64,000 bases of DNA from Bispira polyomma (Eukaryota): contig OZ287755.1 in the NCBI GenBank assembly GCA_965649765.1, positions 27,466,001-27,530,000 on the forward strand, in the 5' to 3' direction. Positions 9,798-50,000 of the stretch are shown in pieces (the stretch's first letter is position 1; every line of letters starts with the position of its first letter). The notes beneath the pieces were generated by a model that was not told where the DNA came from, searched no databases, and saw only the letters and a list, made by a program, of their open reading frames with translations. Both the position numbers and the translations under genes were made by a program.

Positions 9798-11122
9798 ATG
9801 AGGAGCTTCAAGAAACCTAAAGGACTAAGTGCTGGTCGGATAGTAGCGACTAGAACCAGCAAAGATACTGTCCCAGCGACGGCTAGCTTGCCAGGGAAGA
9901 AGTTAAAGAAAACTAAACAGAAAGGGACTAACGACAGCTTGTTCGGACCGTTAGGTGGAGCACAGGGTCGAGGTCCAATAGACATTTCAATGCCAACGTC
10001 TATAGCTGTGGAAAGTGGTCAGTTTCCTAGTCGTACAGGAACCAGAAGTGTAGTCAAGGCGAGACTCGCAGCTGAGGCTGCTGGCAGGCTTTCTGTATCA
10101 GAGCTAACTGGTCAGATGAATTCATAGCAAAACCTTGGCAGTGGTGATCCTCAGACGTCAGATGTATTTCAGCAGTTGGGCCAGTTGACGCAGGCGGTGC
10201 ATTTTTTGAATGATGTTAACTCGCAGCTGATGAACCGGGTGGATACTATTGAATCGAGTACAAGTTCGGATGTTGTGGCTGATTCTGGTGTCAGGGCAGC
10301 CGTTACTGCCCCAGTAGTATCTGTTAACCCTCCGAAGATTTTTCCCTCACTGGGAGGGGCGAAATCGTCACATGAACAGTTATAAACTTTCAGATCCGGT
10401 TTGAATGTTGTTAGTTCGGATCTGGCTGTGCAGCAAGAAGTTCAGAGGAGATTACTGGAGATGGAGGATCAAGAGGAGCAAGTACTGGACTTTGGTATGT
10501 CAAATTTTCGAGCTAGTAACCGAAAAGTTAAGTCTGGTCAGTTTAGAGTTGGATGGGAAACCCCTTGTAAGAGGTTCGTGTATTGGCCTCATGATCTGTG
10601 TTTTATAGGAAGTGACTGTAAAAGAGTAACATATGATGAGCTTACATTGTTACAATGGTCGTTGGGTTTCAATAGATGTATTCTTAAAGAATCTGATTTG
10701 CAAGTATAGCAAAACATGCTTAAGTACAGTACTGAGTTAATGCAAAATGCTATGCATCTCGGTTGGTCAGTAGCCAAAGGGGCTCACAGGGTTATTATGT
10801 GTAGTATGGAGGACAGTCTGTTGACCTGGGCTGAACCAGATAAAGTGAATGAGATTCGGCGGCAGTTTGGCCAGAGACAAGTAGTGGCTAATGCCAAGTC
10901 AGGTTATGTTAAGTCAGCTTCCGGTTTCTCCAATAACAGGGAAGTATGTACTAATTTCAGTCAGGCACTTGTGAATCCAGTGTATATCACAAAGTAGGCA
11001 ATGTTTGGCTCAGGCACATTTGTGCTTATTGTATGAATACCATGAATCGGCCATATCCTCATAAGAAAATGGACTATCAAAAGAAAAAAGCAAAAAACGG
11101 TGGCGCTACCTCTCGGCAGTAA
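9798..11122 (+). pseudogene. gag-like ORF of Ngaro-like copy 1
   Basis: ORFs at 9777, 10176, 10401 and 10716 are one frame broken by single stops; WPH..YDELTLLQW motif; frameshifted C-terminal Cys/His finger. Confidence 0.8.
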
Positions 11123-13990: not shown

Positions 13991-14063
13991 CTGTCATGCC
14001 ACCCCCTCACTTGGGATATTTAATGGTTACTATGAATGATTATGTATATGTTTGTTCTTACAG

Positions 14064-15010
14064 GTTCCACCCAGTTAAAACAATTACTGTCTGTGGCTTC
14101 CGCCCAGGCAAAAATGGTGTATCAGCCCAAAACTAGGGCTTGGTATTATAGGACTATGTCCACCTTTCTTAAGTTTTGTGTTACCAAGTCTGTTCAACAT
14201 CTCCAATACTCACTTAGTGTGGTTCTGGCTTACATTGAGCAATTGGTTCAAATTGGGCTCACTTATCCCTCCATTCAAAATCATTTGTCAGCCTTAAAGC
14301 ATTATTTCAGAAGGTTTGGATTGGATGTGGAAATTTTTAGTCATGTCCATGTGGTCATGCTTCTCAAGGCTATCAATAACAATGTCACTAGACAGGTGAA
14401 AGACAGATTTAATATATATTTGTGCTCAATGTGACAGGATCACACATGGTATAGTTTTAAGGCAGTGTTCTTAGTGGCTTTCTTTGGCCTTTTTAGAATA
14501 AGTAACTTGTTGTCACATAGAGTGTTTCAGTATGATTGCAAACGACTGTTATTACGTCGTGATGTGCAGTTTCAATCACGAGGTTTGGTGATACAAGTTA
14601 GATGGACTAAAACTATGCAAAGTAGACAAATTAGTGTGTCGTTGCAGTTACCTTTTATTAATGGTTCTCCGCTTTGTCCAACACAAGCGGTTCAACAGAG
14701 GTTTGATTGCTATCCGGCTTCTCTGGATGCACCACTTTTTGTATTACCTGGTTCTCAAAATCAGTACAAAATTTTGACAGATGTCAAAGTGCGTTATGTA
14801 TTAAAGGACATTTTAGGAGGCCTTGGCCTTAATACTCATACTCTTGGTTTTCATGCATTCAGGCGTTCAGGGGCTTCCCTCCTGTTTCAAAATAATGTTC
14901 CCTTGCAGTGTCTTCAGGCACATGGGACCTCAGATGCGGTTTGGGCTTACTTGTAAACTGGGGCCAATCTCTCCATCATCCCTCAAGCTTTTCAGGCCAT
15001 TCTACCTTAA
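14064..15010 (+). pseudogene. Tyrosine recombinase of copy 1
   Basis: SIQNHLSALKH, FFGLFRISNL (box I R), WTKT, LCP, FHAFRRSGA (HxxR), HGT-SDAVWAYL (catalytic Y); frameshift near 14430 and a stop at 14954. Confidence 0.9.
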
Positions 15011-15238: not shown

Positions 15239-16780
15239 ATTTTTTATTATACTGACATTGTGTTATACATATACAAATATACAAAATCACATTTTATTAA
15301 TTGTAACACTCAGCCTTAAGGCTTATAAGTCAGTTTAAATATAATATTCTAATTTAATGTGTGTATAAAAAGGTATAAAACTATTATTTTGCAGAAATGG
15401 TAAAATTCACAATTTATTGAACTTTCTATATCTTCAATTCTTTTAAAAATTTTGATTTCCTATATTCCCATAATTTACATAAAAATTTTGCAAATGTTTT
15501 AATATGTTTATCTTTGAGTGACATTAAATTAATAAATTTTTCTTCCGAACTCAAAAGATTAAAGTTTACTTCCACATTTTTAACAACATAATCAAAGAAC
15601 ACTTTTCTATCTCTATCGTAAACTGTACAGTCAATTAAAAAATGCTGTTCGTCTTCTATAAAATTTAAATTACACATTGTACATATCCTACTTGACAAAT
15701 CTCTTTTCTGGTATCTTCCAGTTTCTATGGCTAGAGGCAGTATTCCAGATCTTAATTGGGCAATGAGAGACCTTTCATTTCTATAAAGATTCTGTAATAC
15801 GTATTCTTCTGTATAAATATGAGTTTTATATTTGACATACAATCTTAATTTTGGTTTGGTACATATAGATTCTTGCCATTCGAGATCATTTAAACAAAAT
15901 AGCTTCTCTTCTGCGGTATTTAAATCAATGTCTTCTCCTAGGAGAAGTTTTTCTTGCAAGCCTATCTGATCTAAAATGTTTTCTAGGTCTCCGCTCCAAC
16001 TTTCATTTGTTATGTTCTGAAGATCATGTTCGAATATTTGATATGTTAGTCTCTCATTGTCCATTCTAATAAGCCTATTATAAAACTTAAAGATATTCAT
16101 ATACATTCTGAATTTTGGTTTTAGCCATCCTACATCCAATACATTTACTGGGTTTTTGCATGCACACCCAGAAAATAACGACATGCTCTATTCTGAATTT
16201 TATTGGCATAATTTGAGTGTGCAAAACCCCAAATACCACTACAGTAATCTGTTATAGGTATGATGCCACTTTCATATAATTTTGAGAATGTTTTGAATCC
16301 AATATTTTTATATTGTTTAAATTTTGATATTAATCCACCTAGTGCTCGCCCACCAGCTTCTGATAGTTCTTTTGCGCATACTTTATAATCTAGATGTTCA
16401 TGCAAAGATACACCTAAATACTTATATTGATCAACAATCTCAAGCTTTGAAGAACCAGTAACAAATTTACAACAAGACTGTGGTTTTCGTTTTTTGCGGA
16501 AATGTACTATTTGACTTTTTGATTCGTTTATTAATAAGTGCCATTTTTTGCACCACTGATCCAGTTTAGTCAATAAAAGCTGTAAATGTTCTTCGTTTTC
16601 TGCAATTAAAGCAATATCATCTGCATATAATAATATTGATATCTTTTTGTTACCAAAGGGGACACCTAAACCCATATTTTTTATTTCAATGGCTAAGTCA
16701 TTTATAAAGATTCCAAACAATGTTGGGGACAAATTGTCACCTTGTCTTAATCCTGAATTTACCACAAACCAAGAAGAAAG
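15208..16780 (-). mobile_element. 5'-truncated non-LTR retrotransposon (RTE-X-like) with (TCTA)n tail
   Basis: GLRQGDNLSPTLF, LLYADDIAL, YKYLG; C-terminal LAIETGRY..C..C..EDEQHFLIDC; one frameshift at ~16150; AATAAA followed by a TCTA microsatellite tail. Confidence 0.85.
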
Positions 16781-16869
16781 AATGCATGGAAAATAAACAA
16801 AATATACCAAGACATACTGTTATATATTTGTGTTACTTCAAGGTCTAAAATGGACTCGACTCTGGTCAC

Positions 16870-18211: not shown

Positions 18212-19784
18212 ATGCCTAGATTGAGGAGAGTGAAGAGGAAGATTGTTGAACAGGAGAGAGAGGAGTTTGAAGTGGGAGTATCATCAGATGAGATAGAGAG
18301 GAAGAGGAGAGATGACAGAGAGTCCTGCAGTGAGTGAGAGAGCTGAGAGTGGGAGAGAGGATGCTTCACAAGTATTGCCTGGATCTTCACAGTACAGAGG
18401 ACACATAAAGAAGGCCGGCAAGATGGTCCATGTCATTCTGACAGAGGAGGACGAGGAATCAGTAGTGGATTTTGTCAGAGACAACGAGGTGCTTTTCAAC
18501 AAGCACCATGAACAGTTCAAAGACAGAGCACTGAAGGAGAAGTTGTGGTCCGATTTCGCAGCTACCTGTGGTTTGAAAACCAACGAGGTTAGGCCTTGGT
18601 TTGAGTCGCAGAGGACCTGCTTCGGCAAGTTGATAGTTAAGACCCTATTTTACAGAGCGAAGAAAACTGGCTGATCGCGCTTCTCTTTTCTTGGATATCA
18701 CATCGACAGGCATGTCAAGTCGTCAGGCTTCAAGCCCAGTGCTACGTCTACCCAGGGAGTGTCCCCACCCCGTCAGGGAAGCCACGATGTGTCCAGATAT
18801 TCCAGCATCGGAGAAGAGGGCGACAGCGTCACAAAGACCAGTCTCAGGAGCCTCCAGAGAAGTTCCCCGTCTCGACTCAGCTCAGACGCCAACCTCATGC
18901 TTGGAGAGCACCTCACGCAGATCAGGACACTGATGAGCAGCTTGGTTGGAGAGCAGAGAAGTCCCCAGAAGCCTGTGACCAACCGCAGCGCCTTTTTTGC
19001 TTACCTAGCAGCCGAGGCAGAGAAGTTAGATGTGGGCGAGTTTCAGAAGTTCCGAGACAGCACCTTTTCCTGTCTTAGCCAGATCCAGCAAGGTAGAAGT
19101 CAACCCGTGAGGAGTGCCTTCACCAGACCTGCCCCAACGTCTACCCTGTCGCGAGCGCCTGGATCGAGCTACGTCCCCCGGCAGTGTGTGCAGCAGTCTC
19201 AGCATCCTCAGCTTGTGGTGATGGATAGAGCTACACAGTCTTCGGCTGCTGCACAGAAGCCCGCGTTTCAATCACAGAACTTTCCGTTCCAGCAGTCTCA
19301 GCACCCACCACAGTACGTTGTGGTGGGTACAGCTACAGTGTCTTCAGCTGCTGGGTCGTCTCAGCAGAAGCCTGCTACCACGTTTCAACAACAGAACTTT
19401 CCGTCCCAGCAGTCTCAGCACCCACCACAGTTCGTTGTGGTGGGTACAGCTACAGAGTCTTTGGCTGCTGGGTCGTCCAGTGTCAAGTCGCCGACTTACT
19501 TTAGCTTGGAAGAACATTCAGGGGTTGCTACTAAGTTGATGCCGAGCATTTCTCCTAGTAAGCAGTACTCGAACCCACCTTCTAATGCATCCTTGTTTGA
19601 GGAGTCAGCACACAACACGTCAACGATTTCAAGCTTTCTGACGAAGTACAACAGCAAACTCCCCCAGGACTTCGGTTATGAGACAGTTAGTCCCAGCGCC
19701 CCAGGAATACTGGCAACGCCTTTACCAGTGGACAATCAGCAGTCACAGATTGACAATCAGCAGTCTCAGGCAGTCACAGATTGA
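18212..19784 (+). pseudogene. Harbinger Myb/SANT-like (MADF) DNA-binding protein
   Basis: ATG at 18212; EESVVDFVRDNEVLFNKHHEQFKDRALKEKLWSDFA..WFESQRTCFGKL (MADF); then RSAFFAYLAAEAEKL and a Q/S-rich repeated tail; 2-3 frameshifts. Confidence 0.85.
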
Positions 19785-20309
19785 CAACACACAGCAGCTG
19801 ATCGTCTCGCCAACACCTCAGCCAGAGTCAAAAAAAAAAAGAATCAAAACCTCCCAAAATTGCCCAAGTAAGTATCTAATTGAGATTGAAAATCCCTACC
19901 CCCATTGGAAAAGATTTTGTTGAAAGATAAGGGATACCAAATATGAGATATTGTTAGCAAAAAAAAAGTCTGTCCCTATAAGTACCGAATTGAGATATCA
20001 AGTCCCCATCCCCATAGTAAATGTTTCTGATAAATAATGACAGACAATAATTGCAAGAAATTGTTTTAGAAGGGAAGACAGTACAAAGTCTGTCCCAAAT
20101 AACCCAATAAGTACCAAATTGAGATACAAAACCAAAGGTTGTCAGTATGTCTGTGTGTGTAGGGCTTTTTACATTTTCAATGTTTTTGGGGGGAACTGGT
20201 TAAGTTGTATGTATGCAGGGGCCCTGGGTATTACATTTAGTGATTGTTATTGGTAATAGGTGGGGGGTGGGGGTGTAACAAATAGCTCAGATATTGTTTT
20301 TGAAATAAT

Positions 20310-20361
20310 TGGGTGGTCCTGAAAAGGACCTTTTAAATTTTGGGTGGTCCTGAAAAGGACC
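20310..20361 (-). terminator. Two tandem histone-type 3' stem-loops downstream of the transposase
   Basis: Minus strand: AAAA-GGTCCTTTTCAGGACC-ACCCA twice (stem-loops at 20346-20361 and 20315-20330), starting 75 nt after the transposase stop. Confidence 0.85.
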
Positions 20362-20436
20362 TTTTAAATTTTTTGCTACTGCAAGACCTCTGGGTTGGCT
20401 TCTCATCTGGCTCTTGTGGTTAGGCTCAGGCTCAGG

Positions 20437-21729
20437 CTAAACTCTTTCCTCTTGCCACGGGACAGCCCCCTCATTCATAAAAAAGTCCATTAATACGTCC
20501 CTCTGTTCTTTGGCCGCCCTGGATGGGTTTCTGTGGGTGGTTGGTTGACCTCTTACTAACTGGACCTCGGGTTCAGGTGGATCATCTTGTGGGTTAGGGT
20601 GCTTTAGTGCTGGGTTTCCACACCGGCTTCTCAGTATGTTATGTAATATCACACACATCAATGTCAGATTTGAGGTCACCAGGGGGTGCTGTTACATTGT
20701 CGTCAGTAATAGGCGGAAGCGGCTGGCCAAAATCCCAAAAGAGTTCTCCACTGCCCGCCTTCCCCTGGATATCCTGTAGTTACAAATTCTCTGTGCATGG
20801 GTGAGTTCCCTCCTCGAGTAGGATTTCATCATCCAAGTTTTCAGAGCAAAGGCGTCGTCCCCCAACAGGAAGTATTCCACGTCACGTCAAGACCCCTCAA
20901 ACAGTGGTTAAGGTCTGGGCAGCCCAATGGATGCATCTTCTATCTTCTGCTTGAGGTCTGAGTGGTTAAAAATTTTGGCGTCGGAACAGGAACCACTGCA
21001 TCCAATGTCTACCCAAATAAATCTGTAGTCCGCATCAACCAGGGCAAACAGGACAATGGAGTGGAAGCCTTTATAGTTGTAGAATTCGCTCCCAGCCTTG
21101 GGAGGCTTCTTAATGGCCACGTACTTCCCATCGATAGATCCAACAGCATGAGGGATATTCAACCTGGTCCTGTACACTTCTTCTATTTTCAGCCAGTCTG
21201 CGGGGGTGGTTGGGCAGGCTAGATTTTCTGTCTCTTATTCCGTAATGATGGCCTTGCATTCTTCTGGTATAAACTTGGTGATAGATGACTTCCCCACCAT
21301 GAACTGGTAGGACAGGGATCTGTAGTTCTCCCCAGTGGCCAGGTGCCTTAAAGTTACAGCCAGTTTCAGTCCAACATCCAAGGGCTTTCTGAACCAAGTG
21401 ACTTCTTTCTTCACATGGGGTGTTATCCTATCCTTGATTTCGTCAAATATGTCAGGTGGTAGCCTGAAAAAATTCCTGTATGAGGCTGCATCCCCTTCCT
21501 GTAGCTCCGGCACTAAGTTTGCGTAGTAGCTTAGGGCCTCTCTCTGACCGATCCAAGGCTTGACCCAGCAGGTGGGTGACATACGTGGAAGTCTAATCTT
21601 CTCCGGGGGAGCCCAAGGGGCGCGTGGTGGTGTTTGGTTCAAATCCTCCTGACCCTGAGCCTTGTCTTTCTCATGTTGTAATATAAGCATGAGGATACAT
21701 ATTTCAATCTCAAAAAAACTAACTGGCAT
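20437..21729 (-). pseudogene. Harbinger DDE transposase (HARBI1-like), intronless, frameshifted
   Basis: [94 protein letters not shown]. Confidence 0.95.
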
Positions 21730-22233
21730 TTTACTCACTTACTCAATTATTAATGACCTGATTACTCAAAAATTCTTGAGTTTTAGGGCTCAAAAAGAGG
21801 TACTTATGGGTCTAGAAGCACTCCTGACTTTAATTTTTAGAAAGTTCGAACCTATTGGTCGGGATGACCAATACGTCAGATCCTATAGTCAATACGTTCG
21901 ATCCTAAGTCAATACGTTCGATCCTATCGCCAATAAGTTTGATCCTATTCAGGTCGGGAAGGTCGGGAGTCAATGGAGTTCAAAGTCGTACGACCTTTAC
22001 ATACGATCGGGGTCGCGGGCCCGTCAAAACGGCGCGCAATCAGTTTAATTGGGAAGGTCGGGGCATATTTTCATTTTCCCGCCCAAAAAGTGGATTTTAT
22101 TGATTTTTTGGTCCCGACCTTCCCGACTTTAAAGTCGGGGTTTTTTTGCCGATCGAACTTAAGTGTGGAACCCCCCCTTTAGCATTATAAAAGTTAGATT
22201 GTTGATATTACTATTTTCACATCCTGCGCTTCC

Positions 22234-25560: not shown

Positions 25561-27896
25561 ATCTGATTGCACAGAGCACTTGCTGAATGATGGTCAAGAT
25601 GAAAACCCCCAGACCTTCTCTAAAAAAACTCCTTCTGAATTCCTCTTGGGTAGTGATAGTGACTTCATTTTGATGGCTCTAGAAGACCTGGAAAATTCCC
25701 TGTTAGACAGATAACTTCCTTCTTGAAGAATTATGTCTATATTCCTCATGTGGAGTAGCAAAATCTATATTCACAAGTGATTAAAATTGGATATAGGTAA
25801 CTTCTATACAGGAACAAGACATTCTGTATGAGAGATAAAATTCTCAAATCTGTTCTCAGACATTGAAGTTTGAACATACCTTTGCCCCAAGAAACATCGA
25901 TAGAAACCTGTAAGTAAATACCATCGTCATAAGTTTTAGAGAAAGCACTGTCTTCTTCTAAGCTGACTGACTTAAACTTAAGCCTACACTTCTATATAAA
26001 TATCAGCAATCTATGTGGTATAGCTCCAAAACACTGTAAAAGCTGGGCTGCCTTAAGTGAAGGAGTTATTCCTAAAGGCTGGAACTGCTTTAAAAATCCC
26101 ACAGCTTCCTTTAAATTTCAGCTGGTGGCAATACTGTGATTGAGATGTCACATCTAAGGTAATCTTTAAAAGGAATAACCTCTAAAAATCTGTTTCACTT
26201 CTTCAGATATTTTAGGTGGTACTGAAGCTCCCTATGTGACTTAAGAAGACTGCCAATGACAGCTTAATAAATCAAGTCAAGCAATAGAAAAACATTTCTT
26301 CAATGTCGACAATGTGTCAACATAAATAGGCACTGGCTAATCACCATCATCAGTAACCTCTAACGTAATAGTATGTATACGTCTTCACAGTCAGTAAACA
26401 TGTAAAACTTCTGTCTCGCCTTATGAATGATATTTAAGGGGGTACTGATACTCTGTTTACATCATCTTTAGCACTTGCCCGTGGACAAGCTAGAACGTGT
26501 ATAAAATAGAAGTGAGGAACAATCTTTGGTGCAGCGTTCTGCATTGTTAGCATTCACAGCAATATAAGGCCTCTTAAAGCAGTCGGATCTTCCGCTCACT
26601 TGTCCATCTGTTGAGTTTTAGACAGTACCTTGTTTCCAGGAACTATTCTGCTTTATCTATCTATCAACTCCTGTATATTTTTAATAGAGACCTCTGTGTC
26701 AATGACAAAATAAGGCCTATATGACAATAGTTGTTGAGTAGATTTGTAGATCTGACTTAAAATTACTGCTAAAGATTGTCGATTTTTTAAAATCAACTAG
26801 AGGCCTATCTATTCTGCACTCTCGATCCATCACTTCGTAGTCAGTAGTAAGGGTTGTGGACGAGACCTTGTAACCGTATCTTCAGTAGAAGCAACTTCAT
26901 AGGCCATGTGAGACTGACAAAACTGCTTAAAAACCAACTAAATAATGGTTTGTAGCAAATATTCTGTCAAAATTCACGGGACTGAATCAAGTTCGTTCCC
27001 ACGAGAAAATTTACTTAAGATTCGATCCCAAAAATGGAACATGCTCGTCAAAAATGAACCACTAACAAAAGGAATCTTTCAGCATTCATTGTAGAATTCA
27101 TTGTCTAGTAGATAAAACTCTTATTAGTTGAATAGATGGAGTAAAAATCCTTAAACTCTAAAAAATTTCAAAAGATGGACTTCACTGTTGATGGCTAACA
27201 AAAATAATGAAGTGAACAGGTGATCATGTGACCATTTTGGCGGGAGGGTGGACTAATGTTTTTACCCATTGGCTGGTTAAGGTAGTACTATACCTGAATT
27301 TTCGCATCTATGCATTGGCCAATGGGTTGGATGGCTCCAAAATATAGCTCAGTCTCTCCCCAGTTATGTGGACTTAGTTCAGTTCCCCTGTGTAGCAGGC
27401 CAAGGGATTATTAGAGAATTCTTAGCTTCTTAGTTTAGCCAAGCATAACTAATAATGAGCCCAGTTTGCGGTAATAATATTTATTAGTTACTATGTTAAA
27501 ACACTAACAGCTAATATTTACAGTAGAGTTTGAGGAGGGCATAAGGTCACCAAAGCCTAAGGCTTAAACTTTTTAGTTTAAGTTGAAAGTTAACTTTTAG
27601 TCCAAACTTAAACCCCAATTTAAGTAAATTTTCACTTTAAGTCCAAACTTAAGCATTAAGTTGAGGATTTGAGTTTTAGTTCAACTTAATGTGTTTTTGT
27701 ACGTTCAACTTGAATTTTTGGTTTTAAGTTGAACGTACATTTTAAGTACAATGTGTACTGGTTACTAAAGGTGACCTTATGCCCTGGGACAGTAATGACT
27801 TTTGTTACTGTCTAGTTGACTGTTATGAACATATTTATCTTGTTTTGTTCCAGATTTGTAAACATAAAATGTGTCATACCACCAAACCCCAATAAC

Positions 27897-28882
27897 CTAG
27901 GAGTTGTGTAGGATGGAAGCCCTAAAAGAATCCGCAACCTGGGAACCAGCAAACGCCGAATCAGTAATATATCTCCAGACACAATCCGACGTCCAGGTGC
28001 CCTGTCTCTGGATATCTTGAATTCTAACATTGTTATTAAATGCAAACGTGGCACCTGAACATCTGAACACATAAAAAGTGAGACCTGTCTGCTCACAACC
28101 TAACATTTTTAGAACATTTTTTAGATGTCTACGTACTTTGGAATCCGTAAGCGGAACCCAATTTCGCCCACATTTGAACTGAAAGAGGGGAAGATTATCC
28201 CCTACAGGAGTGACAGCCAAAACATTTTTAATCGCTGTAACTGGACAGATGCTGGAACCAGGAAGGGCTGGGATGGTTATGAGCTTGACAACATCTCTAG
28301 TTTGAAGGGTTTTAGACCACTTCACCAATGTAACAGCATAGCCTGGTTTAAACGTAATGTCAGCTCGTGCTAGCTGTTTCAAAGGGTCAAAATCCCTGAC
28401 AGAATGTGGGCACAGATTTGACAAACGCAGGAAACTGAAAAAACTAATCAGATACACAGCTTTGAATACTAGTCCCATATATGTTACATGACATTTCTGG
28501 ATTAATTTTTCCAGCAGTGTGATATCAAACAGTGCCTTCAATTTTGCTTGCAGAGGTTTACTGACCGCCAGAGCCTTGTTGAAATACTTAATTCTGGTAT
28601 CAGAAAAAGCTTCTACTTGTACATGAAACAATACACATTTAGCCTTTATAGCAGAAAGGTAATTGGCAATTTGTGAAGCTGAAACTTTATTACTGTACAA
28701 GAACTCTAAAAAAGAGAGCAACTGCAATACATTCACCTTTTCCGGGCTCCAATCCATGAAAACCCCAAAAGCTATGAAGGTCCTGAACATTCTATCATAC
28801 GCTCTAGAGGTAGACAGAGAGAAGGCTCTGTGAGCTCTTTCACAAGCCTGTCTAACCAACATAAGCTCTCCTGGGTGAATGC
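27897..28882 (-). CDS. Tyrosine recombinase of copy 2 (HxxR histidine mutated)
   Basis: IANYLSAIK, FFSFLRLSNL, WSKT, ICPV, FYVFRCSGAT (HxxR with H>Y), GTWTSDCVWRY; preceded by ttgcAG acceptor. Confidence 0.9.
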
Positions 28883-28909
28883 CTGCAATATACACTATAC
28901 CATAATGAA

Positions 28910-31455
28910 TTATATGTTCTCATTAACCCTGAGCAATGCATGATGCACGGGCAGCCATTGCACAGGGCCTAGCAAGTCATGCAATGCTTTGTGATCTCTG
29001 TTGGTATCAGTCCATTTGGACAGCAAATCTGCTACTTTGTTTTTTACCCCCAAAATGTGAATGACTTTAATGTCGATGTCAAGTTTACTGACCAGCATAT
29101 AAATATTGCGCGTGTATGTGGCTAACGTAGGATCCCTTGTCGATCCGCTTTGCAAAACAGTCACAACTGCCTGGTTATCACACTTGATTAAGACACGTCT
29201 ATTTTGCCAAAGCCGGCCCCATAATTTAATTGCCACCAGTATGTTCAACATTTCTAGGTACGCTATGTTTAGTTCAGTCATATGAGTCGGGAGTTTCAAT
29301 TGGTAGACTTGATTTTGATAAACCCCCCCCCCCCATGCCTGTCAAACAGGCGTCAAGCTCTACTTGAGCTGTAACTGGAATATGAGAGAAAAAGGAAACT
29401 CCATTAAATTGTTGTATAAACACCGAGAACCAATTTAAATCTCTCCTGAATTCCTGAGTTATGTTTATACATTTACTGGTGTGATTGTCTCTCAACAATT
29501 GAAGCATACGATTTAAAAACGCCCTTGCATACTTTACACATTTTGACACGTAAAGTAACAGGCCTAGCAGGGATTGAAGTTCCCGTTTAGTACAAACATT
29601 TTTTGTTTCCCATGCTTCGCAGACGCTCTTAATTGCTTGCAATTTCTCAGGTGGAATCGAGGTAGTGAGGTGAACTGTGTCTATAGTGATACCCAAGCAG
29701 ATTACGGACGTACCAGGATGTACTAATTTTTTTTCACTGACAATTAAACCGAGCTCTGTCAAGAGTTCCTGTAATCTCATATACGTTTTCTGTATTTTGC
29801 TGGGCAGCGAGACACATAAAAAATCGTCGATATAATTGTGGACGTTATGATTTTCTGTTTTCATAATGTACCTCACGGCATCCGAAATTCTTTGAAAAAT
29901 AGTGCTGCCATTCTGATAACCGAACGGCAACGATTTATCTATGTAATATTTTTTCCAATTTAAACCTAATAGGTCTAGGTCACCCGGATCTATGGGCACG
30001 TGACGAAAGGCCCTACTATCGTCCACTTTAAAGATATGACAGCCTTTACCCATCTTAATGACCTCTTGCGTTAGACTGTCGACTGAAGGATATGACAGTA
30101 AAAACTCGGTGCCTAAGTAAGACGTGGGGGAGACCCCTGCATTTACCGAATATCCTTGCGGCCAACTAAGGTCCACAATAACTCTTCTGTTCTCTGAATT
30201 GGCTTTATCTCTCGTCATTAGGGGGGAACAATGTAAGTTTTCGATGGGTGGGTCATCAAAAGGACCTAACATGGCCCCCAGTGAACATTCTTCCGCCATA
30301 TAAAAATCTACATGAGCCGGGAATTCAGTCGCCGATTTATGATTATTCCCCTCATTGTGAGTTTTATTTTCTCGACAAAAATCTAATGGAAAGCCATGCT
30401 TGATCAATAAAGGCAACTGTTTATCCCAATAGTTAAGCAAATACTTATCCCATGCCTGAGTATTTAGCTGCGATTCAACCGGGAGCTTAAGGCCATTAAA
30501 ATTGAACCTGCCATCCGCCCTGACACGCTTGTGTATTTCTAACACGTGTAGTCGTTCCGTTTTTGTGCTTTCTGTGTTATTACTGGTCATGAAATCCGAG
30601 AGAGGTGTGAACCCATAAGCCACATCATTTTGTGCCTGCCACCTTTTGTAATTGTCATTATTCTTTGCCAAGTCTAACAAGAGACGTTTGTTTTTTCTCT
30701 GTTTGAGGCCCCATGTATATTTATCTGAAGGTAAAATGCACTCACTAGTACTGTCCTCCTTATTAAGGTTGTTTGTAGTAGCCAAGCCTGTGTAAAATCT
30801 GGTATCATTATTCTGAACCAGGCCTTGGCCCCCTTTGTTGGCTTGACGCCCTTTACCACACTTGCTATGATCTGTCTGTGCGTTAACCCTCACTGTGGTA
30901 ACATTAACAGGCCCAGTGTGAATGGCACTCCTGCCCCTCTCACTATCCCTGACAGACGCTTTGTGTCTTTTGTTCTCTATTGTGGCAATTTCTGGCCTGG
31001 TAGTTTCAGATTGATTACTCCCCCCTTTCCCCAGAGTGTCAATGTGAGCGAGAATGGCATACCTATTGTGAAGTGGAAGGGCACCCCGGGTTGAATTGTG
31101 TTCACACCTCCTCCCAGATCTCCTGTCCACCCCTTTTGTCTCTTTGTCACTAGACCTCACACTAGGATTGATTGTTTTCACGCCTACCTGCGGTACACCG
31201 CTGGGGAAATGGACTCTTTTGTAACCCTCTGTGTATTTGACTTTCAATAGATTTAGTATTGTTAATACTTCTTTTTACTACGTCGCTATACTTGACAGAG
31301 ATACTCCTGCCTTTCTGATATCTGATCATTTTCTGTACAACCGACTTTTGCAATAAAGCTACATCCCTAAACTGGGTATTATATACAACTCTAGTAAAGA
31401 CTCTGTTATTGACATTTGCATCCACTGCACTTAGGCAGTGGCCCCTTAGTTTTTT
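28910..31455 (-). pseudogene. pol (RT + RNase H) of copy 2
   Basis: RRVIVDLSWP, KVDDSRAFRHV, LPFG, NYIDD, CLGITID, LDACLTG, LEMLNILVA, CDNQAVV, NKVADLLS; frameshifts near 31200 and at a 12-G run (~29330). Confidence 0.92.
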
Positions 31456-32486
31456 AATGCCTTTTTGGGGCACATGCTGCTCCTGTGACTATTGTCACAG
31501 GTTTCGCATGTATGTTTGTAGAACTGCATACCTGTTTTATGACTAGTCGAATGTTTGCATGTGCCATCCTGAAAATAGCGACACGTGACCGCCCCTTGTT
31601 TGAAGTTATTTTTCTTGTGACTACTTCCCAACGTACGAATGCCTGCCCCCGTACCGGTTTGACCTGCATGCAAATGTCTCTGAGCATGGGCTCTACGAAT
31701 TCTGTCAACCTTTTCAATGTCTGACCATTTTAATTTGTCCATCTCCATATTCGTAAGGACGACTGCATGGCAAGCTTTAGCGGCCTCCCAGGAAAAATCC
31801 TGGGCATCCTCCATCAAGCCAGTCATGTAGTCGAGCATAGCGTTTTTATTTTCTTGCAACTTCTCTTCTTGAATGATTCGCGTAAAGCCACAGACCCATT
31901 GCACTACAGTTAGATCATCATAGCTGGGCCGTGCTTTGGTGCTACCCGATAGAACATGATTGTGGGGCCACTCTACAGTTCGTTTCACCAAAACTTCCAA
32001 CCCCCCTCCCCTCTGGGATTTGATCTTACCTTGGGAAGGGCTCTCGTTAATTTGCCTTAGCTCTTTAAGCCTTTGCTCAACCTGGGTTTGAATTTGTACA
32101 TTCTGTCTCAGAAATTCAATACTGGGAACAATCCTGGTGTCAGGTACGCCAGCGCTCTGACGGCTATCGCCCAAGTCTACAGAACTAATTTGCGAGACTG
32201 AATTTTTACTTGCCTGATTGTTAGAATTTTCCACCAGCGCTGCCTCTGTGAGCTGAACCCGTCGATCCATGCTCTGCACTGCCTGACTAATCGACTGCAG
32301 CTGTTTCAATATAACAGTCGACATATCTCTCTCACCAGAGACCGACACTGAATCCGACGGGTCCACCTCAGCTGAGTCAGCAACTGTATTCCCCAAAGAT
32401 ATGTCCAAAACATTACAATGTCGACCAACCGGCCTTGGGTGTTTCCCCAAACATTTGGAGCAGTATACACTCGAACGACGTGGCAT
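31446..32486 (-). CDS. gag-like protein of copy 2 (346 aa)
   Basis: Open frame; N-terminal CxxCxxxHxxPxGxxC; WPH..YDDLTVVQW; C-terminal C-x6-C-x5-H and CxxCxxxHxxxxC fingers. Confidence 0.9.
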   Translation of the reverse strand: MPRRSSVYCSKCLGKHPRPVGRHCNVLDISLGNTVADSAEVDPSDSVSVSGERDMSTVILKQLQSISQAVQSMDRRVQLTEAALVENSNNQASKNSVSQISSVDLGDSRQSAGVPDTRIVPSIEFLRQNVQIQTQVEQRLKELRQINESPSQGKIKSQRGGGLEVLVKRTVEWPHNHVLSGSTKARPSYDDLTVVQWVCGFTRIIQEEKLQENKNAMLDYMTGLMEDAQDFSWEAAKACHAVVLTNMEMDKLKWSDIEKVDRIRRAHAQRHLHAGQTGTGAGIRTLGSSHKKNNFKQGAVTCRYFQDGTCKHSTSHKTGMQFYKHTCETCDNSHRSSMCPKKALKN

Positions 32487-35089
32487 CACTGTGAATTATA
32501 AAAGCAACAACTAAAATACTAAAATACAATCAAAAACGAGCATAAATTCAAATGTGATGCCACGCTACTTTTCTAAACAATGCTCCCTGTTCTGTAAACT
32601 TCGGAAATGGCGGGAGAATTTTAGAGGAGCCGGCTTTTATACTACCGCACATAGCCTGCAAATTAGTCAGCCTGGTACCCGAGAACTGACCTTGCTGCCG
32701 CCCGGGTCGTCATCTCATAAAGTTGGATAGAAAGGCAAGATGCAGACACAGTAAGAACAACATGTTAACTCGTTTGGATTTTATTAAAACACACACACAC
32801 ACAATTCATTAACACTATTATGTAATCCCCAGTATGAGGTTACCTTAAGATCTAGCCAACCTGTTTGAGGTCACCTTAACTTTGCCTATTATTTAAGGTT
32901 ACCCTTAAGTAATGCGAATTTTTGCCTTCTGTTTTATGGTTTCCTTAAATTGCACTTAAGGTGCCCTTAAGTTGTTGAGTTTGAGGTGTCCTCAAACTGA
33001 TGATTACTTACACAACATTCTTCGTGACTATCAACTAAAACTATGTACCTTAAGTATGAATTGTAATATGTATATAATGTAAATTACCTACGTATACATT
33101 ACTTATAGTGATATGAAGTATCAAGTGCCGCGAAACCACTGGAGGCCAGTTTGGAACCCGGGTCCTACGGCACCTATTCGCCTAGCAGTAAAGGTTCCCG
33201 GCTGCAGAGCTTTGGTCCCTGGTAGCCCACACCAGGGTGTAGATACAAGCCGAGAACCAGTACCACACGGATCCGGGTTCAAAATCTGCCCGCAGCAGCA
33301 CGCAAGGCACACAGCACTGCAATCAGACATGTAAAACTAAAACAAGTAGACTAAAAACAGCTATGATAAGGAAAATACAATAAACCAACCTTGCAAAGGC
33401 TGAGCCTTGAAAAAGGCTGATTTGCTCTGAAGAGCATTAAGACCTGTACATTATGCATGCGCACATGGCATAATTAGTAACCATGACGGAGAAAAAGGAT
33501 GTGAACGTGCTTGCATGTTGCCATTCTATAGAAATTACTATCTGAGGGTGAGGAGGGTGGGAGTTTTTGATCCACACCTTCCAAGCATTTATTCCAGAAT
33601 GATGTATGTAATGCTTGGGCCCCCAAACCTGGGGTTTTTGGCGGGAAATAAAGTTTTGTGGGTAAACTTGCTAATGAGCATCAATGTGACAGAAAGAGAG
33701 ATTGTCACCTGACGCTAGCCTTTATAAGGCGCGCGTTCAACTTAATATCAGGAAATGGTAGTAGTATTTCGCTATAAAAGCTCATTTATGAAACTAATTT
33801 TGACAATAATTGAAAAACACCTACTGAGGCAATCAGCCTGATCATTTTAGTATCACTGCAATATATGACTATTGCAACTGAATGACCTGGCTTGTAGCAA
33901 GAAACCAAAATAATCTGTCAAAGAGCAATTAATGAGGATCTCTAGTTCACCCTTTTCTGAAAATGTGTACAACAGCCTCATCGTCACAATGTACCTTTAC
34001 TAACTTTTTCTGCCAATATTTGCCCCACCCTTGCAACATGACATGTTTATCATCTCATAGTGTACTATAGGTTACATATGTGCAAAACTAGCATATACGT
34101 GGCTGCATCCATGTGGAGGGTAGGTCATTATCAAATATTATGAAATGAACAGTCAACAAAAATAACCGAATTTTATGCATAAGGTCATCTGCTATTTACA
34201 TAATGTTCTCATTCAAGTTCAAATTGTACTTAATCTGAAAATGCAGACAAGATAAAGGAAGCTAAGGTGGCCTTTACACCTTATGCTTAGGTGGCATTTC
34301 ACCAAAAGAATAAGTAAATTCTTAAAAACCCAGGATAAGGTGACCTTATCCCCTTACTGAAAATCAACTCTATATATAAACATAAAAGTATACATTAGAA
34401 AATAATTTTTTAACGGTTTAATTTACCGCAATCTTGTTAATAACTTTAAATACTTGCTGCTCCCCCCAAAAAAAAATCCTTCTTGTTCCAACATATAAAT
34501 GCAAAGTTTTGCAAATGATGCTCCTACCCTATGGAATAGTTTACCCCCTTTTCCGTCAACAAGGCATCAGCATATACTAAGAAATCTGGGTCACTGTCGA
34601 TGAATCATAACACCCATATTCAACACACAAAGGGAAGCTAAAATGAAAACGCCTGCACTTTTATAGTATGGAACCCTGTTTGTCGTACAATATTATAAGC
34701 TTGAACAACCCACTGCTTAAGGGGAACATATTCCAACACAGATGACTTGTTCTTCCACACATACAAGAAAATTTCCTGTCCCAAACCCCTGTACCATACT
34801 ACATGATGCACCTAGAAGCCGATAATAAAGCCTATTCAACAGCGAGAAAAACTGTATGAATCTTGATTAGGAATTAAGTCCAAGTATACATTGGGGATTG
34901 CTATTATGTAAGGGAACACTGGACTGAACTGATTAAGGTCATGTGACAATGGAATACAAACAATATACAGAGAGCACGTAATGGTGGGTAGAAAGTTTAT
35001 CACTGGTTATGCGACACATTAATTCCTTCCAGGGCACTGTGGAAAACCAGAATGGCCAACAAATAATAAGGCTTCTTATAAAAGATTTG

Positions 35090-44000: not shown

Positions 44001-47000
44001 ATATTAGAATACAATACCAACTGTGTACAAAGATATGGTTATGTTTGTCGGAAGGATCCATATTTAAATACTGTGTACAAAGATATGGTTATGTTTGTCG
44101 GAAGGATCCATATTTAAATACTGTGTACAAAGATATGGTTATGTTTGTCAGAATGATCCATATTTAAATACTGTGTACAAAGATATGGTTATGTTTGTTA
44201 GAAGGAACCATTTAAATACTGTGTACAAAGTGGTAGTTATAGCGAGTCAGTGGTAGTTATAGCGAGTCAGTGGTAGCTATAGCGAGTCAGTGGTAGTTAT
44301 AGCGAGTCAGTGGTAGTTATAGAGAGTCAGTGGTAGTCATAGAGAGTCAGTGGTAGCTATAGAGAGTCAGTGGTAGTTATAGCGAGTCAGTGGTAGCTAT
44401 AGAGAGTCAGTGGTAGCTATAGAGAGTCAGTGGTAGTTATAGGAAGTCAGTGGTAGCTATAGAGAGTCAGTGGTAGTTATAGAGAGTCAGTGGTAGTTAT
44501 AGAGAGTCAGTGGTAGTTATAGAGAGTCAGTGGTAGTTATAGAGAGTCAGTGGTAGTTATAGATAGTCACCGAGAGCTACAGAGAGTCACAGGAAGCTAT
44601 AGATAGCCAGTGGTAGTCGTAGAGAGTCACAGGTAGTTATAGAGAGTCACAGTTAGCTACAAAGAATCACAGGTGGCTACAGAGTCACAGGTAGTTATAG
44701 AGAGTCACAGGTAGTTATAGAGAGTCGCAGGTACTTATAGAGTGTGGCTTACATTTCTGTAATGTCCTTATCTCCTAGGGTGATGGTGACTTTTGGTGGT
44801 TTTAATGTGCCCTCCGTGTTGACCACACACTTTATACCCGCCTCCTGGCCCTCAGAGAAGATCAACGTTTCCCCCTCCTCCACGCCAATGTATGTCCCCT
44901 GATGAGTCTTTTGTGAAAGGCGGAGATCACTGGGAGGCACTGTAACACAGTTACACAACAAATCCACAGGAAACTATTGTGAAAACACTATNNNNNNNNN
45001 NNNNNNNNNNNNNNNNNNNNNNNNNNNNNNNNNNNNNNNNNNNNNNNNNNNNNNNNNNNNNNNNNNNNNNNNNNNNNNNNNNNNNNNNNNNNNNNNNNNN
45101 NNNNNNNNNNNNNNNNNNNNNNNNNNNNNNNNNNNNNNNNNNNNNNNNNNNNNNNNNNNNNNNNNNNNNNNNNNNNNNNNNNNNNNNNNNNNNNNNNNNN
45201 NNNNNNNNNNNNNNNNNNNNNNNNNNNNNNNNACAAAAAAATGGCTTGATAATCAACAGTAACCCTGTCATATGTAAACAAAACCAACTGCTGAAACCTA
45301 GAATAGAATGAGAATTACATGGCTTTTAAATTACATTGTAAGAAAAACAAAAATAGTATCAGAGATGCCGAAACTCCACAGCCTTTGGGTGAAACCAGAC
45401 TATGGCATTGCACACCTATACTTAGTAATATTTGTACCACATATGATGAACTTCCTCAGCCTCATGGTTTGAACTTTGGCAGCTGCTGAGCGTCTGCTCA
45501 TCTGACAAACCGGCTGAAAACAAAACCCCAAAACCTCACAGCCATTATACTTGTACTTGAATCTGAATTTAGTTGTGTTTTTCATTGCTTTTAACAGCTT
45601 AGGTCATATCATGATATCCAGATTCATTGGTGGAAGAAATCAGTTCCTATGGCAATTACATGACAAACATTCTTATACATTCATTATGTGAAGGGTGAAA
45701 GAGAGTTGTGCCCCTTGCCACCGGATGCCAAAGGGTGGGTTAACACCCAGTCTGGCTGCTTTCTCATTAACCAGCGGTTAACCCCCCTATCCTTACGACC
45801 TTGCCATGCCCATGGACTTTATGATTGGATCACTGATTCTGCTGTTGCGCTTTAGAAGATGCCCTAGCATCAATAAAGTGCATTAAAAATGCATTATAAT
45901 AATAATGAAAGAACAAACAAGATTCGAACCCACATTGGTGAGAGGCCTGTGATTGTAAAGCAAGTGCTTTAAACCATTAAGCCACTGCAGTCCCCGGTAA
46001 AACTTAGCAAGTCTATTGTTACAAATGTCTTAGACTTAGTATGAAGAGACTAAATAGAGGATTTATTGCACAGGACTTACCAATGATATTAATGGTCTCT
46101 ATGGCTGTTTCTAACGGATTGTTGTTGTTCATGATATGAACACATAACCACTGTCCCCTGTCTGCACCGCGAACCCCTGCAAGGAAGTCAGTACATGTTG
46201 TAAAGAATACAGTGTATAACTAACTATACAGCTGCTACACTTCAGGGGCCGTATTCACGAAGGGACTTGGCCAAGTCTTAGGCTTAAATCAGTAAATTTT
46301 TGTGCTATAGTTAAGCCGAAGACTTGGCCAAGTCCCTTCGTGAATACAGCCCCAGGTACACAGTAATCTATAGAGTATAATATGTATACATCAAGTACAC
46401 ACTATATCTACAATACGATGTAAAGAACACAGTGGATAAATATACAATGAGATTGTACAGCTGGTACACACTTTGTGTACACAGTAATATACCAGAGATA
46501 CAATTGGGTTGACGTTAAGTTTGTTCAGGGAACCTACACCATCAGTTTAGGCTTCTTACCTTTTATGCTGACAATTTGCACTCCATTAATAAGGTTGTTG
46601 TCACCGTCTATAACTTCGTACCGTTCTTGCTGCTGAAAACCTCCTTGTTTGACTCCATTCACAGCCACAGAAAACTGAGTGCCCTCAATTTTTCGTACCA
46701 GTTTGAGTAACTCAAATTGCTTATATTCTAAAAATGAAAATAATGCACAATAATACTTCACTCAAAACTTTTATTAAATTTTTTAGTGTACATGTATTAG
46801 TCAATTTGTCGCATAACTCATCTTCTCAGGTCCTGTATTCACTAAGGGACGTAGCCAAATATACTTTACTAGATTTAAGAATAAGACTTGGCTAAGTCTC
46901 TTCGTAAATATGGGCCCTGATGTTCTATTTACAGTTTTACACAAGAATTAATCTATAGATATTTATACACGGTGGTTTCTAAAACTCGGAGCTCCGTCAC

Positions 47001-50000
47001 GGAGGTAAAATGGCCTAAAATCGCCTAAAATCACCTAGATCTTGGGAGGTAGCTCCATATGGATGTAAAATCGCCTAAATCTTGGGAGGTAGCTCTAAAA
47101 TCGCTCAAATCTTGGGAGATAGCTTGAAAATCGCCTAAATCTTGAGAGGTAGTTTGAAAATCGCCTGACTCTTGGGAGGTAATTTATAACAAACTTTTAT
47201 GAGGAATTAATTTCATAAGGAATTTATTTTCTATGAATGTATTATTATATGTATTCTACTAAATAACCATTGTATTGTTATATTTATTCTTCATCCTATT
47301 TGGGGATTATAATATACAGTCTAGGATTTAATTTTGTATTAATGTATTCTTATATGTAGTATTATATTTATTCTTCATTCGGTTTGGGAATTATATAATA
47401 TACAGTCTGGGGATTATTTTTTTCATATTTATTCGAAATTAGAATATTAGAAAAAAGTACTTTGAGCAGGCCTGATATCAAAAGATTTATATATTAAAGC
47501 AATCATTGAATTTAAGTATTTTAACTTCAAAATAATTTCGGTGAGTGTACATATATAGGGGGTATTTGGAGATAAGAGTACATCTATAGAGTGTCTGTAG
47601 GTAAGTGTACATCTATAGAGTGTCTGTAGATGAGTGTACATCTATAGAGTGTCTGTAGGAGATGAGTGTACATCTATAGAGTGTATGTAGGAGATGAGTG
47701 TACATCTATGGAGTGTCTGTTGGAGATGAGTGTACATCTATAGAGTGTCTGTAGGAGATGAGTGTACATCTACAGAGTGTATGTAGGAGATGAGTGTACA
47801 TCTAGAGAGTGTCTGTAGGAGATGAGTGTCAATCTATAGAGTGTCTGTTGGAGATGAGTGTACATCTATAGAGTGTATGTAGGAGATGAGTGTACATCTA
47901 TAGAGTGTCTGTTGGAGATGAGTGTATATCTATAGGGTGTCTGTAGGAGATGAGTGTACATCTATAGAGTGTATGTAGGAGATGAGTGTACATCTATAGA
48001 GTGTATGTAGGAGATGATTGTACATCTATGGAGTGTCTGTTGGAGATGAGTGTGCATCTATAGAGTGTCTGTAGGAGATGAGTGTACATCTACAGAGTGT
48101 ATGTAGGAGATGAGTGTACATCTAGAGAGTGTCTGTAGGAGATGAGTGTACATCTATAGAGTGTATGTAGGAGATGAGTGTACATCTATAGAGTGTCTGT
48201 TGGAGATGAGTGTACATCTATAGAGTGTCTGTTGGAGATGAGTGTACATCTATAGGGTGTCTGTAGGAGATGAGTGTACATCTATAGAGTGTATGTAGGA
48301 GATGAGTGTACATCTATAGAGTGTATGTAGGAGATGAGTGTACATCTATAGAGTGTATGTAGGAGATGAGTGTGCATCTATAGAGTGTCTGTTGGAGATG
48401 AGTGTACATCTATAGAGTGTCTATATAAGATGAGTGTACATCTATAGAGTGTATGTAGGAGATGAGAGTACATCTATAGAGTGCCTGTGGGAGATGAGTG
48501 TACATCTATAGAGTGTCTGTAGATAAGTGTACATCTATAGAGTGTCTATTGGAGATGAGTGTACATCTATAGAGTGTATGTAGGAGATGAGTGTACATCT
48601 ATAGAGTGTATGTAGGAGATGAGTGTACATCTATAGAGTGCCTGTATGAGATGAGTGTACATCTATAGAGTGTCTGTAGGAGATGACTGTACATCTATGG
48701 AGTGTCTGTTGGAGATGAGTGTACATCTATAGAGTGTATGTAGGAGATGAGTGTACATCTACAGAGTGTATGTAGGAGATGAGTGTACATCTAGAGAGTG
48801 TCTGTAGGAGATGAGTGTCAATCTATAGAGTGTATGTAGGAGATGAGTGTACATCTATAGAGTGTATGTAGGAGATGAGTGTACATCTATAGAGTGTCTG
48901 TTGGAGATGAGTGTACATCTATAGAGTGTCTGTTGGAGATGAGTGTATATCTATAGGGTGTCTGTAGGAGATGAGTGTACATCTATAGAGTGTATGTAGG
49001 AGATGAGTGTACATCTATAGAGTGTATGTAGGAGATGATTGTACATCTATGGAGTGTCTGTTGGAGATGAGTGTACATCTATAGAGTGTCTGTAGGAGAT
49101 GAGTGTACATCTACAGAGTGTATGTAGGAGATGAGTGTACATCTAGAGAGTGTCTGTAGGAGATGAGTGTCAATCTATAGAGTGTCTGTTGGAGATGAGT
49201 GTACATCTATAGAGTGTCTGTTGGAGATGAGTGTACATCTATAGAGTGTATGTAGGAGATGAGTGTACATCTATAGAGTGTCTGTTGGAGATGAGTGTAC
49301 ATCTATAGAGTGTCTGTTGGAGATGAGTGTATATCTATAGGGTGTCTGTAGGAGATGAGTGTACATCTATAGAGTGTATGTAGGAGATGAGTGTACATCT
49401 ATAGAGTGTCTGTTGGAGATGAGTGTACATCTATAGAGTGTCTGTAGGAGATGAGTGTACATCTATAGAGTGTCTATATAAGATGAGTGTACATCTATAG
49501 AGTGTATGTAGGAGATGAGAGTACATCTATAGAGTGCCTGTGGGAGATGAGTGTACATCTATAGAGTGTCTGTAGATAAGTGTACATCTATAGAGTGTCT
49601 ATTGGAGATGAGTGTACATCTATAGAGTGTCTGTAGGAGATGAGTGTACATCTATAGAGTGTCTGTATGAGATGAGTGTACATCTATAGAGTGTATGTAG
49701 GAGATGAGTGTACATCTATAGAGTGTATGTAGGAGATGAGTGTACATCTATAGAGTGCCTGTATGAGATGAGTGTACATCTATAGAGTGTCTGTAGGAGA
49801 TGACTGTACATCTATGGAGTGTCTATATAAGATGAGTGTATATCTATAGAGTGTATGTAGGAGATGAGTGTACATCTATAGTGTGCCTGTGAGAGATGAG
49901 TGTACATCTATAGAGTGTCTGTATGAGATGAGTGTACATCTATAGAGTGTATGTAGGAGATGAGTGTACATCTATAGAGTGTATGTATGAAATGAGTGTA

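Follow-up and report, generated by a model that had tools for sequence, protein, structure and literature searches.

A tyrosine recombinase (YR) retrotransposon of the Ngaro type in the genome of Bispira polyomma very probably expresses its recombinase mainly from a spliced RNA that joins the N-terminal part of gag (Gag-N), in frame, to the YR open reading frame (ORF). We analysed the element in a window of 64,000 nucleotides (assembly GCA_965649765.1, contig OZ287755.1, positions 27,466,001 to 27,530,000 of the forward strand); all coordinates below are positions in this window. The element lies on the reverse strand at 27380-32719 and is called copy 2 here, and a decayed relative on the forward strand, divergent from copy 2, is called copy 1. 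A first-pass annotation of the window had proposed that YR is expressed by splicing. The sites, their phase, and their conservation beyond amino-acid constraint support this, and the removal of the intron itself is predicted.

In copy 2, the gag ORF (31446-32486, 346 aa) begins with the ATG at 32486. Within it, the predicted donor CAAG/GTAAGA (32024-32033, reverse strand; the slash marks the junction) matches U1 better than any other of the 66 GT dinucleotides in gag of this copy. The coding part of predicted exon 1 (32030-32486) has 457 nt, that is, 152 codons and 1 nt, and it ends in phase 1 inside the Gly codon of a GKIKS motif. The YR frame spans 28919-27897; the predicted acceptor in it is tattgcAG/GC (28881-28890, reverse strand), and the first base past the acceptor, 28882, is in phase 1 of this frame. 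Predicted exon 2 (27897-28882, reverse strand, 328 codons) encodes the tyrosine recombinase. By arithmetic, 457 and 986 nt make 480 codons and a stop, and the pairing proposed at first pass, the donor between 32030 and 32029 with the acceptor between 28883 and 28882, both in phase 1, was confirmed as an in-frame Gag-N/YR product of that length. Two of the accompanying distances needed correction: from the pol stop that follows RNase H (28912-28910) to the end of the intron there are 27 nt, not about 26, and the first ATG of YR (28862) lies 7 codons, not about 10, past the junction Gly. The predicted intron (28883-32029, reverse strand, 3147 nt) would take out the Gag core, the Cys/His cluster, and the whole of pol. 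Its GT donor with a U1 match and its T-rich YAG acceptor are those of a U2-type intron. A second in-phase YAG is found 12 nt downstream of the acceptor, from which the exon would start at 28870. The same arrangement had been claimed for copy 1, where a phase-1 pair is indeed present: the predicted donor is TTG/GTATGT (10492-10500, forward strand, junction between 10494 and 10495) and the predicted acceptor is gttcttacAG/GT (14050-14065, forward strand, junction between 14063 and 14064), spaced 3569 nt apart.

We compared these sites among 120 genomic copies and 26 metagenome-contig loci with 26-45% best-segment identity. The source genome comprises 1.04 Gb in 75 contigs, and the scored YR matches numbered 122 with copy 2 as the query and 151 with copy 1. 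For the acceptor, we used the 114 of 148 oriented loci that included the N-terminus of YR and had a single frame covering at least 150 profile positions, and these formed 23 YR families by single linkage at 78% (14 from the source genome and 9 from other organisms). The pairwise identity of YR was 22-86%, with a median of 34 (34 finer clusters). For the donor, 36 intact gag ORFs formed 17 families (13 from the source genome and 4 from other organisms). Among 60 fetched copies, the donor AG/GTAA[AG] is in register in 47 of the 51 copies with a mappable gag (it is one base off in two and altered in two; the other 9 copies were excluded because gag was not mappable), and the acceptor YAG is in register in 58 of 60 copies. 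The Ngaro-like elements of the source genome are very diverse, with at least 14 YR families among the fetched copies and more than 13,000 YR candidates at a first look.

The donor is conserved across the Gag families. The best U1-matching GT within the 35 codons before a KS[QG]-type motif is in phase 1 in 16 of 17 families, with a tie in the other one, and it forms the single conserved strong GT column in gag. All 17 families have a phase-1 donor in the corresponding linker of Gag. In 11 families, the donor Gly could be aligned in one column, and its codon is GGT in all 11. Other Gly codons are GGT in 113 of 323 cases (35%), and nine other conserved Gly columns each use 3-4 codons. The residue after the donor Gly varies (K, R, T, N, M, or E), and so does the donor itself by family (GTATGT, GTACGT, GTAAGT, or GTGAGT; in the locus L137 it lies inside an Arg codon). 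The first-pass annotation had suggested examining whether the donor at the G-K codons of gag is conserved beyond amino-acid constraint, and the invariant GGT followed by a variable residue indicates that it is.

The phase-1 YAG before YR, also suggested for examination, proved to be conserved in 22 of the 23 family representatives. In profile codons 4-10, YAG occurs in phases 0, 1, and 2 in 1, 22, and 1 of them, respectively; the one miss is a frameshifted copy whose sisters keep the site, and no phase exceeded 10 of 23 in 15 other windows taken as a control. At unselected positions around the acceptor (22 representatives), T is found at -5 in 21 and at -6 in 18, position -4 is mixed, and a purine is found at +1 in 18. 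The resulting nucleotide profile, TTNYAG/R, is that of a textbook 3' splice site. The site precedes the A[FY]xP motif of YR by about 18-19 codons. It encodes varying residues, and in-frame stops occur a few codons upstream, so that protein constraint fails to explain the profile. The translated footprint, [FLIV][TASP][GDEA], is found at the place of the acceptor in 59 of 79 database YR ORFs from other organisms, namely those long enough to cover this place among 239 matches, compared with 0-12 in 12 other windows.

Several points weigh against a spliced Gag(N)-YR RNA as the main route to YR. The splice is a prediction from DNA sequence. The families are related, and thus the counts above are not independent trials. 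Outside the column of 11 families, the donor was taken as the best phase-1 GT in the window searched, which is partly circular. In the clade of copy 1, the donor is weak by a simple U1 score, and 15 and 20 gag sites score equally; in the deepest clade (the L136 group), there are two competing acceptors and two competing donors, all in phase 1. In the copy 2 family and several neighbours, a Met occurs 0-9 codons past the acceptor (9 of the 23 families do not have a late first Met), and an unfused, nearly whole YR would therefore be possible in those families. Genome searches, with the best candidates scored, found no intron-less DNA copy of the element. Finally, none of the 239 database YR proteins, which are mostly ORF calls on DNA, is a Gag-YR fusion (one gave a marginal Gag match, E 0.04).

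Other searches for spliced products gave the following results. All 39 exact matches to the family exon end have GT next, and none continues otherwise. The longest YR frame among the 122 scored matches has 364 codons, and the long frames (498, 978, 1232, 473, 422, and 407) that were considered as spliced copies proved to be frameshifts, a deletion, or gag run-on. YR was found on none of 150 Gag relatives, and alignment of Gag-N to longer proteins gave no match, although this is a weak test. Ten Gag clusters carried no annotated names, and no relatives were found among viral contigs. Three runs of unrecorded kind cover the element and its flanks evenly, in a DNA-like manner, and the predicted joint is not among the 15 listed of their 103 joints; these runs are uninformative on expression. 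A packaging or cis-acting signal within the intron may be the reason why the spliced RNA is not copied back into the genome.

In the mechanism that we propose, the spliceosome would use the gag donor and the YR acceptor together, and the spliced RNA would give the Gag(N)-YR fusion. Translation of the unspliced RNA would yield Gag and also Gag-Pol, the latter through a predicted -1 frameshift. Frameshifting by -1 is an established mechanism for Gag-Pol. In copy 2, pol (reverse transcriptase (RT) plus RNase H; 28910-31488, reverse strand) is in the -1 frame to gag and is damaged; one of its defects is a change of frame at the G run at 29334-29323. The predicted frameshift site (31422-31455, reverse strand) comprises, at the stop of gag, the slippery heptamer A AAA AAC (31455-31449), followed by a hairpin (31441-31422). 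In 14 of 17 families, the end of gag carries the heptamer in register, and in 11 of these 14 the same CACTGC/GCAGTG hairpin is found 5-8 nt past the slippery site (one or two copies were folded per family), which suggests that Gag-Pol is made by a -1 frameshift at the gag end. A second acceptor for pol was considered and rejected, because a strong in-frame candidate was found in two of seven intact pol copies, at differing places. Since the gag end carries a predicted frameshift site and there is no conserved acceptor into pol, three products are predicted, namely Gag, Gag-Pol, and Gag(N)-YR. Each would have the ATG of gag as its start, and no protease that would separate them was found; both enzymes would then carry the N-terminal helices of Gag.

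These helices were seen in AlphaFold models of Gag (mean pLDDT, the confidence score of the model, 64 and 67), in which long helices are predicted at residues 52-90 and 123-148 and a confident core at about 160-275. In the models, the donor (codon 153) falls in a low-confidence linker that directly follows the last N-terminal helix and precedes the core. Because the helices end before it and the core starts after it, the donor appears to be at a domain boundary. Besides the two helices and the helical core, the copy 2 gag encodes an N-terminal CxxC-H-C motif and a C-terminal Cys/His cluster (residues 302-339); the latter is better conserved and would be lost by splicing. The first-pass annotation had expected the fusion to carry a Gag-N zinc knuckle. 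This holds for copy 2, in which CxxC-H-C is present, but not in general, as the motif is missing in the clade of copy 1 and in the locus L145. What all predicted fusions have in common is one or two long helices. Because the helices, and not the Cys/His motif, are shared by all fusions, protein-protein assembly is likely to be a better candidate than RNA binding for the route by which Gag-N acts. Gag matched no Pfam family, and a search with its profile among representatives at 50% identity found 4591 relatives (E<=0.001). Foldseek gave no PDB match for the Gag fold, a further fold comparison reached at best Z 5.1, to generic helical bundles, the Atlas gave no usable match, and the YR profile had no sequence match in PDB.

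Through the helices, YR could join Gag in assembling around the genomic RNA or the cDNA. We regard it as an even question whether Gag-N loads YR into the particle. The other possibility, to which we give a smaller but substantial share, is that the splice is real and Gag-N is merely a start codon with a leader, or is cleaved off, without a role in the particle; this concerns the function of the fusion and not the splice. It would fit the observations that no part of Gag is less conserved than Gag-N, that the length of Gag-N ranges from about 110 to 230 aa, and that its Cys/His motif is not universal. On the other hand, the donor stays at the boundary between the helices and the core, and not near the ATG, so that the helices are always kept, and no protease domain was found in four intact pol ORFs.

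The splice itself has three competing explanations. The acceptor may be real and paired with another donor, in a 5' leader or a host exon, or a short internal transcript may allow YR to be translated from its own ATG, with the GT in gag being incidental. The Met 7 codons past the junction in the copy 2 family, together with the early Met of several other families, would allow this. It is nevertheless improbable, because YR has no early Met in 14 of the 23 families, in which the first Met of most copies is at least 23 codons (up to about 100) past the acceptor, and because gag has a lone conserved strong GT column, in phase 1. An intron in the 5' leader, ending at an AG just before the gag ATG, was also considered and was rejected because this AG is not conserved across families.

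The explanation nearest to the literature is a Gag-Pol-YR polyprotein, for which ribosomes would pass from the RT/RNase H end into YR by programmed frameshifting or by reading through the stop: the YR ORF of Ngaro has been described as overlapping RT/RNase H in the -1 frame and as probably translated by frameshifting (Poulter and Butler 2015, in the lines quoted in PMC13003380). In several families, YR indeed overlaps pol briefly (by 7 nt in the copy 2 family, 28 or 73 nt in others) and is in the -1 frame relative to it, and single copies have pol and YR in one frame. However, among 91 copies from 19 families in which the end of RNase H was mappable, the frame of YR relative to pol is -1, 0, or +1 depending on the family, with overlaps or with gaps of up to 293 nt in many families, whereas the phase of the acceptor is fixed. 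A slippery heptamer in register at the pol/YR boundary was found in one of the 91 copies and is lacking from the 7-nt overlap of the copy 2 family. The gag-pol boundary offers an example of a conserved frameshift site in these elements, and the pol/YR boundary does not resemble it. Frameshifting would also leave the TTNYAG/R profile and the fixed GGT codon unexplained, and we consider it very improbable. The two copies with RT in frame with YR are L108 (4453-7387, oriented), through an internal deletion, and L109 (3730-7426, oriented), as an open frame of 1232 codons.

It is extremely improbable that the sites arose by chance or amino-acid constraint, with the G-K of GKIKS, encoded by a GGN-AAR codon pair, forcing GGT-AA and an AT-rich spacer in an AT-rich genome supplying the AG, since a Gly codon does not require T in its third position but all 11 aligned ones have it, the next residue varies, and the acceptor is concentrated in one phase; this explanation is largely refuted.

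The broadest form of our proposal is that, in Ngaro elements from animals to protists, YR is made only as a spliced Gag(N) chimera, both enzymes are tagged with the helices and co-assemble with Gag without a protease, and the splice ratio acts as a switch between copying and integration; this would be a third mode of particle building in retroelements, free of a protease. We advance this tentatively, with doubt slightly outweighing belief. The translation of the downstream recombinase in elements of the order DIRS has so far been answered by a guess of frameshifting, which a conserved splice would replace. If the splice is used, the real recombinase would have about 150 extra residues, which is relevant to biochemistry and tool-building, because annotations by ORF finders start at an internal Met or within intron sequence. 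The mobility of Ngaro would then depend on host splicing and on the export of an intron-retaining RNA, as in retroviruses.

The env gene of retroviruses and pol of foamy viruses are downstream ORFs expressed from spliced subgenomic RNA, mostly from their own start or with a few Gag codons; in the predicted Ngaro-type fusion, in contrast, about 150 Gag residues would be kept. A closer likeness is the SD' RNA of murine leukemia virus (MLV), in which a donor inside gag and a downstream acceptor fuse the N-terminal part of Gag in frame to integrase sequence, and the product (P50/P60) is packaged, according to the part of PMC10496198 available to us. In that account, P50 is an accessory product with no more of integrase than its last 116 aa, the integrase proper coming from Gag-Pol, whereas the Gag-N splice would be the sole route to the whole recombinase here. 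The SD' RNA is also described there as reverse transcribed and integrated, whereas no spliced DNA copy was found for the present element. In plant Ty1/Copia elements, a conserved alternative splice (shGAG) sets the ratio of structural to catalytic proteins, and the unspliced RNA is the genome (PMC5580714, in the part available to us). That splice gives a Gag-only RNA with early termination, whereas the Ngaro-type splice would skip RT and give an enzyme fusion.

In the accessible text of the papers that we consulted on these elements, YR is a separate, often overlapping ORF, or its expression is not addressed, and a splice internal to the element is not mentioned (PMC7192593, PMC6681497, PMC4157794, PMC3783388, PMC9210276, PMC8547959, PMC12477816, PMC9341512, PMC2632668, PMC9940879, PMC4495291). 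We found no published report of a Gag-YR splice; subscription reviews, Goodwin and Poulter 2004, Repbase, and supplements were outside this search and may hold a mention. The predicted splice would be new as an expression variant within the known Ngaro superfamily.

The element is a YR retrotransposon of the Ngaro type and was filed there by structure. It has gag, RT/RNase H, and YR in this order on one strand, with RVT_1 and RNase H matches. Pfam searches of four intact pol ORFs found RT and RNase H families only, with no methyltransferase, protease, or DDE integrase, and pol stops shortly past RNase H. The YR was assigned from weak Phage_integrase and SAM-like Pfam matches (E 0.004-0.08) and from the R-K-HxxR-W-Y residues, which are conserved in 38 aligned proteins; in copy 2, the HxxR motif is altered, a change seen in 1 of 19 copies. 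Placement among DIRS-like or PAT-like elements was rejected, as neither a methyltransferase domain nor inverted terminal repeats with an internal complementary region are present.

The ends of copy 2 were mapped against 20 sister copies (L031-L050) and give the order A1, gag, pol, YR, B. The 5' repeat A (32570-32719, reverse strand, about 150 bp) has a TATAAA at 32641 and, in full-length copies, recurs at the 3' end, where it is called A2; the 3' repeat B (27380-27882, reverse strand, about 504 bp) has an AATAAA at 27485. Copy 2 contains only A1 and one B, without the A2-spacer-B2 tail. In 5 of the 20 sister copies, B1, A2, a spacer, and B2 are found at the 3' end, and four of these five also have A1; thus, the split direct repeats of Ngaro (A1-ORFs-B1-A2-B2) are seen in the full-length sisters. 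These repeats are among the defining features of Ngaro in the accessible parts of PMC8547959, PMC4157794, and PMC9210276, and the element differs from described Ngaro elements in its spacer between A2 and B2 and in lacking a hydrolase ORF. The spacer (L032, L035, L039, L042, and L047) is 670-690 bp long, unique within the element, and without a long ORF. No SGNH hydrolase ORF follows YR, and the spacer of L039 has no ORF of more than 72 codons; this ORF is optional in Ngaro, and its absence is not disqualifying. The distant relative L134 has an SGNH/GDSL hydrolase ORF at 1042-1692, directly after YR (PF13472, E 5e-12), and L148 resembles this arrangement by eye.

The ending with a single B, found in 15 of the 20 sister copies and in copy 2, is what recombination between B1 and B2 would give. 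The element ends are TAYGAGA (5') and GAACTG (3'), and the same two motifs meet at the B1-A2 junction. No obvious target duplication was found at the flanks of L031-L050, many of which are embedded in tandem repeats of various periods. DNA contigs link about 27349 to about 33745, which places copy 2 and about 1 kb upstream of it within another repeat, as a nested insertion.

Elsewhere in the window, the ORF list by eye contains what we take to be a remnant of a LINE-type RT (15426-16819, reverse strand) and, presumably, a Harbinger-like pair at 18297-21738 (a DNA-binding ORF on the forward strand and nuclease ORFs on the reverse strand). At 46000-54000, the GC skew is very strong, reaching about 0.5 between 48 and 54 kb, and the region is probably a long simple or tandem repeat.

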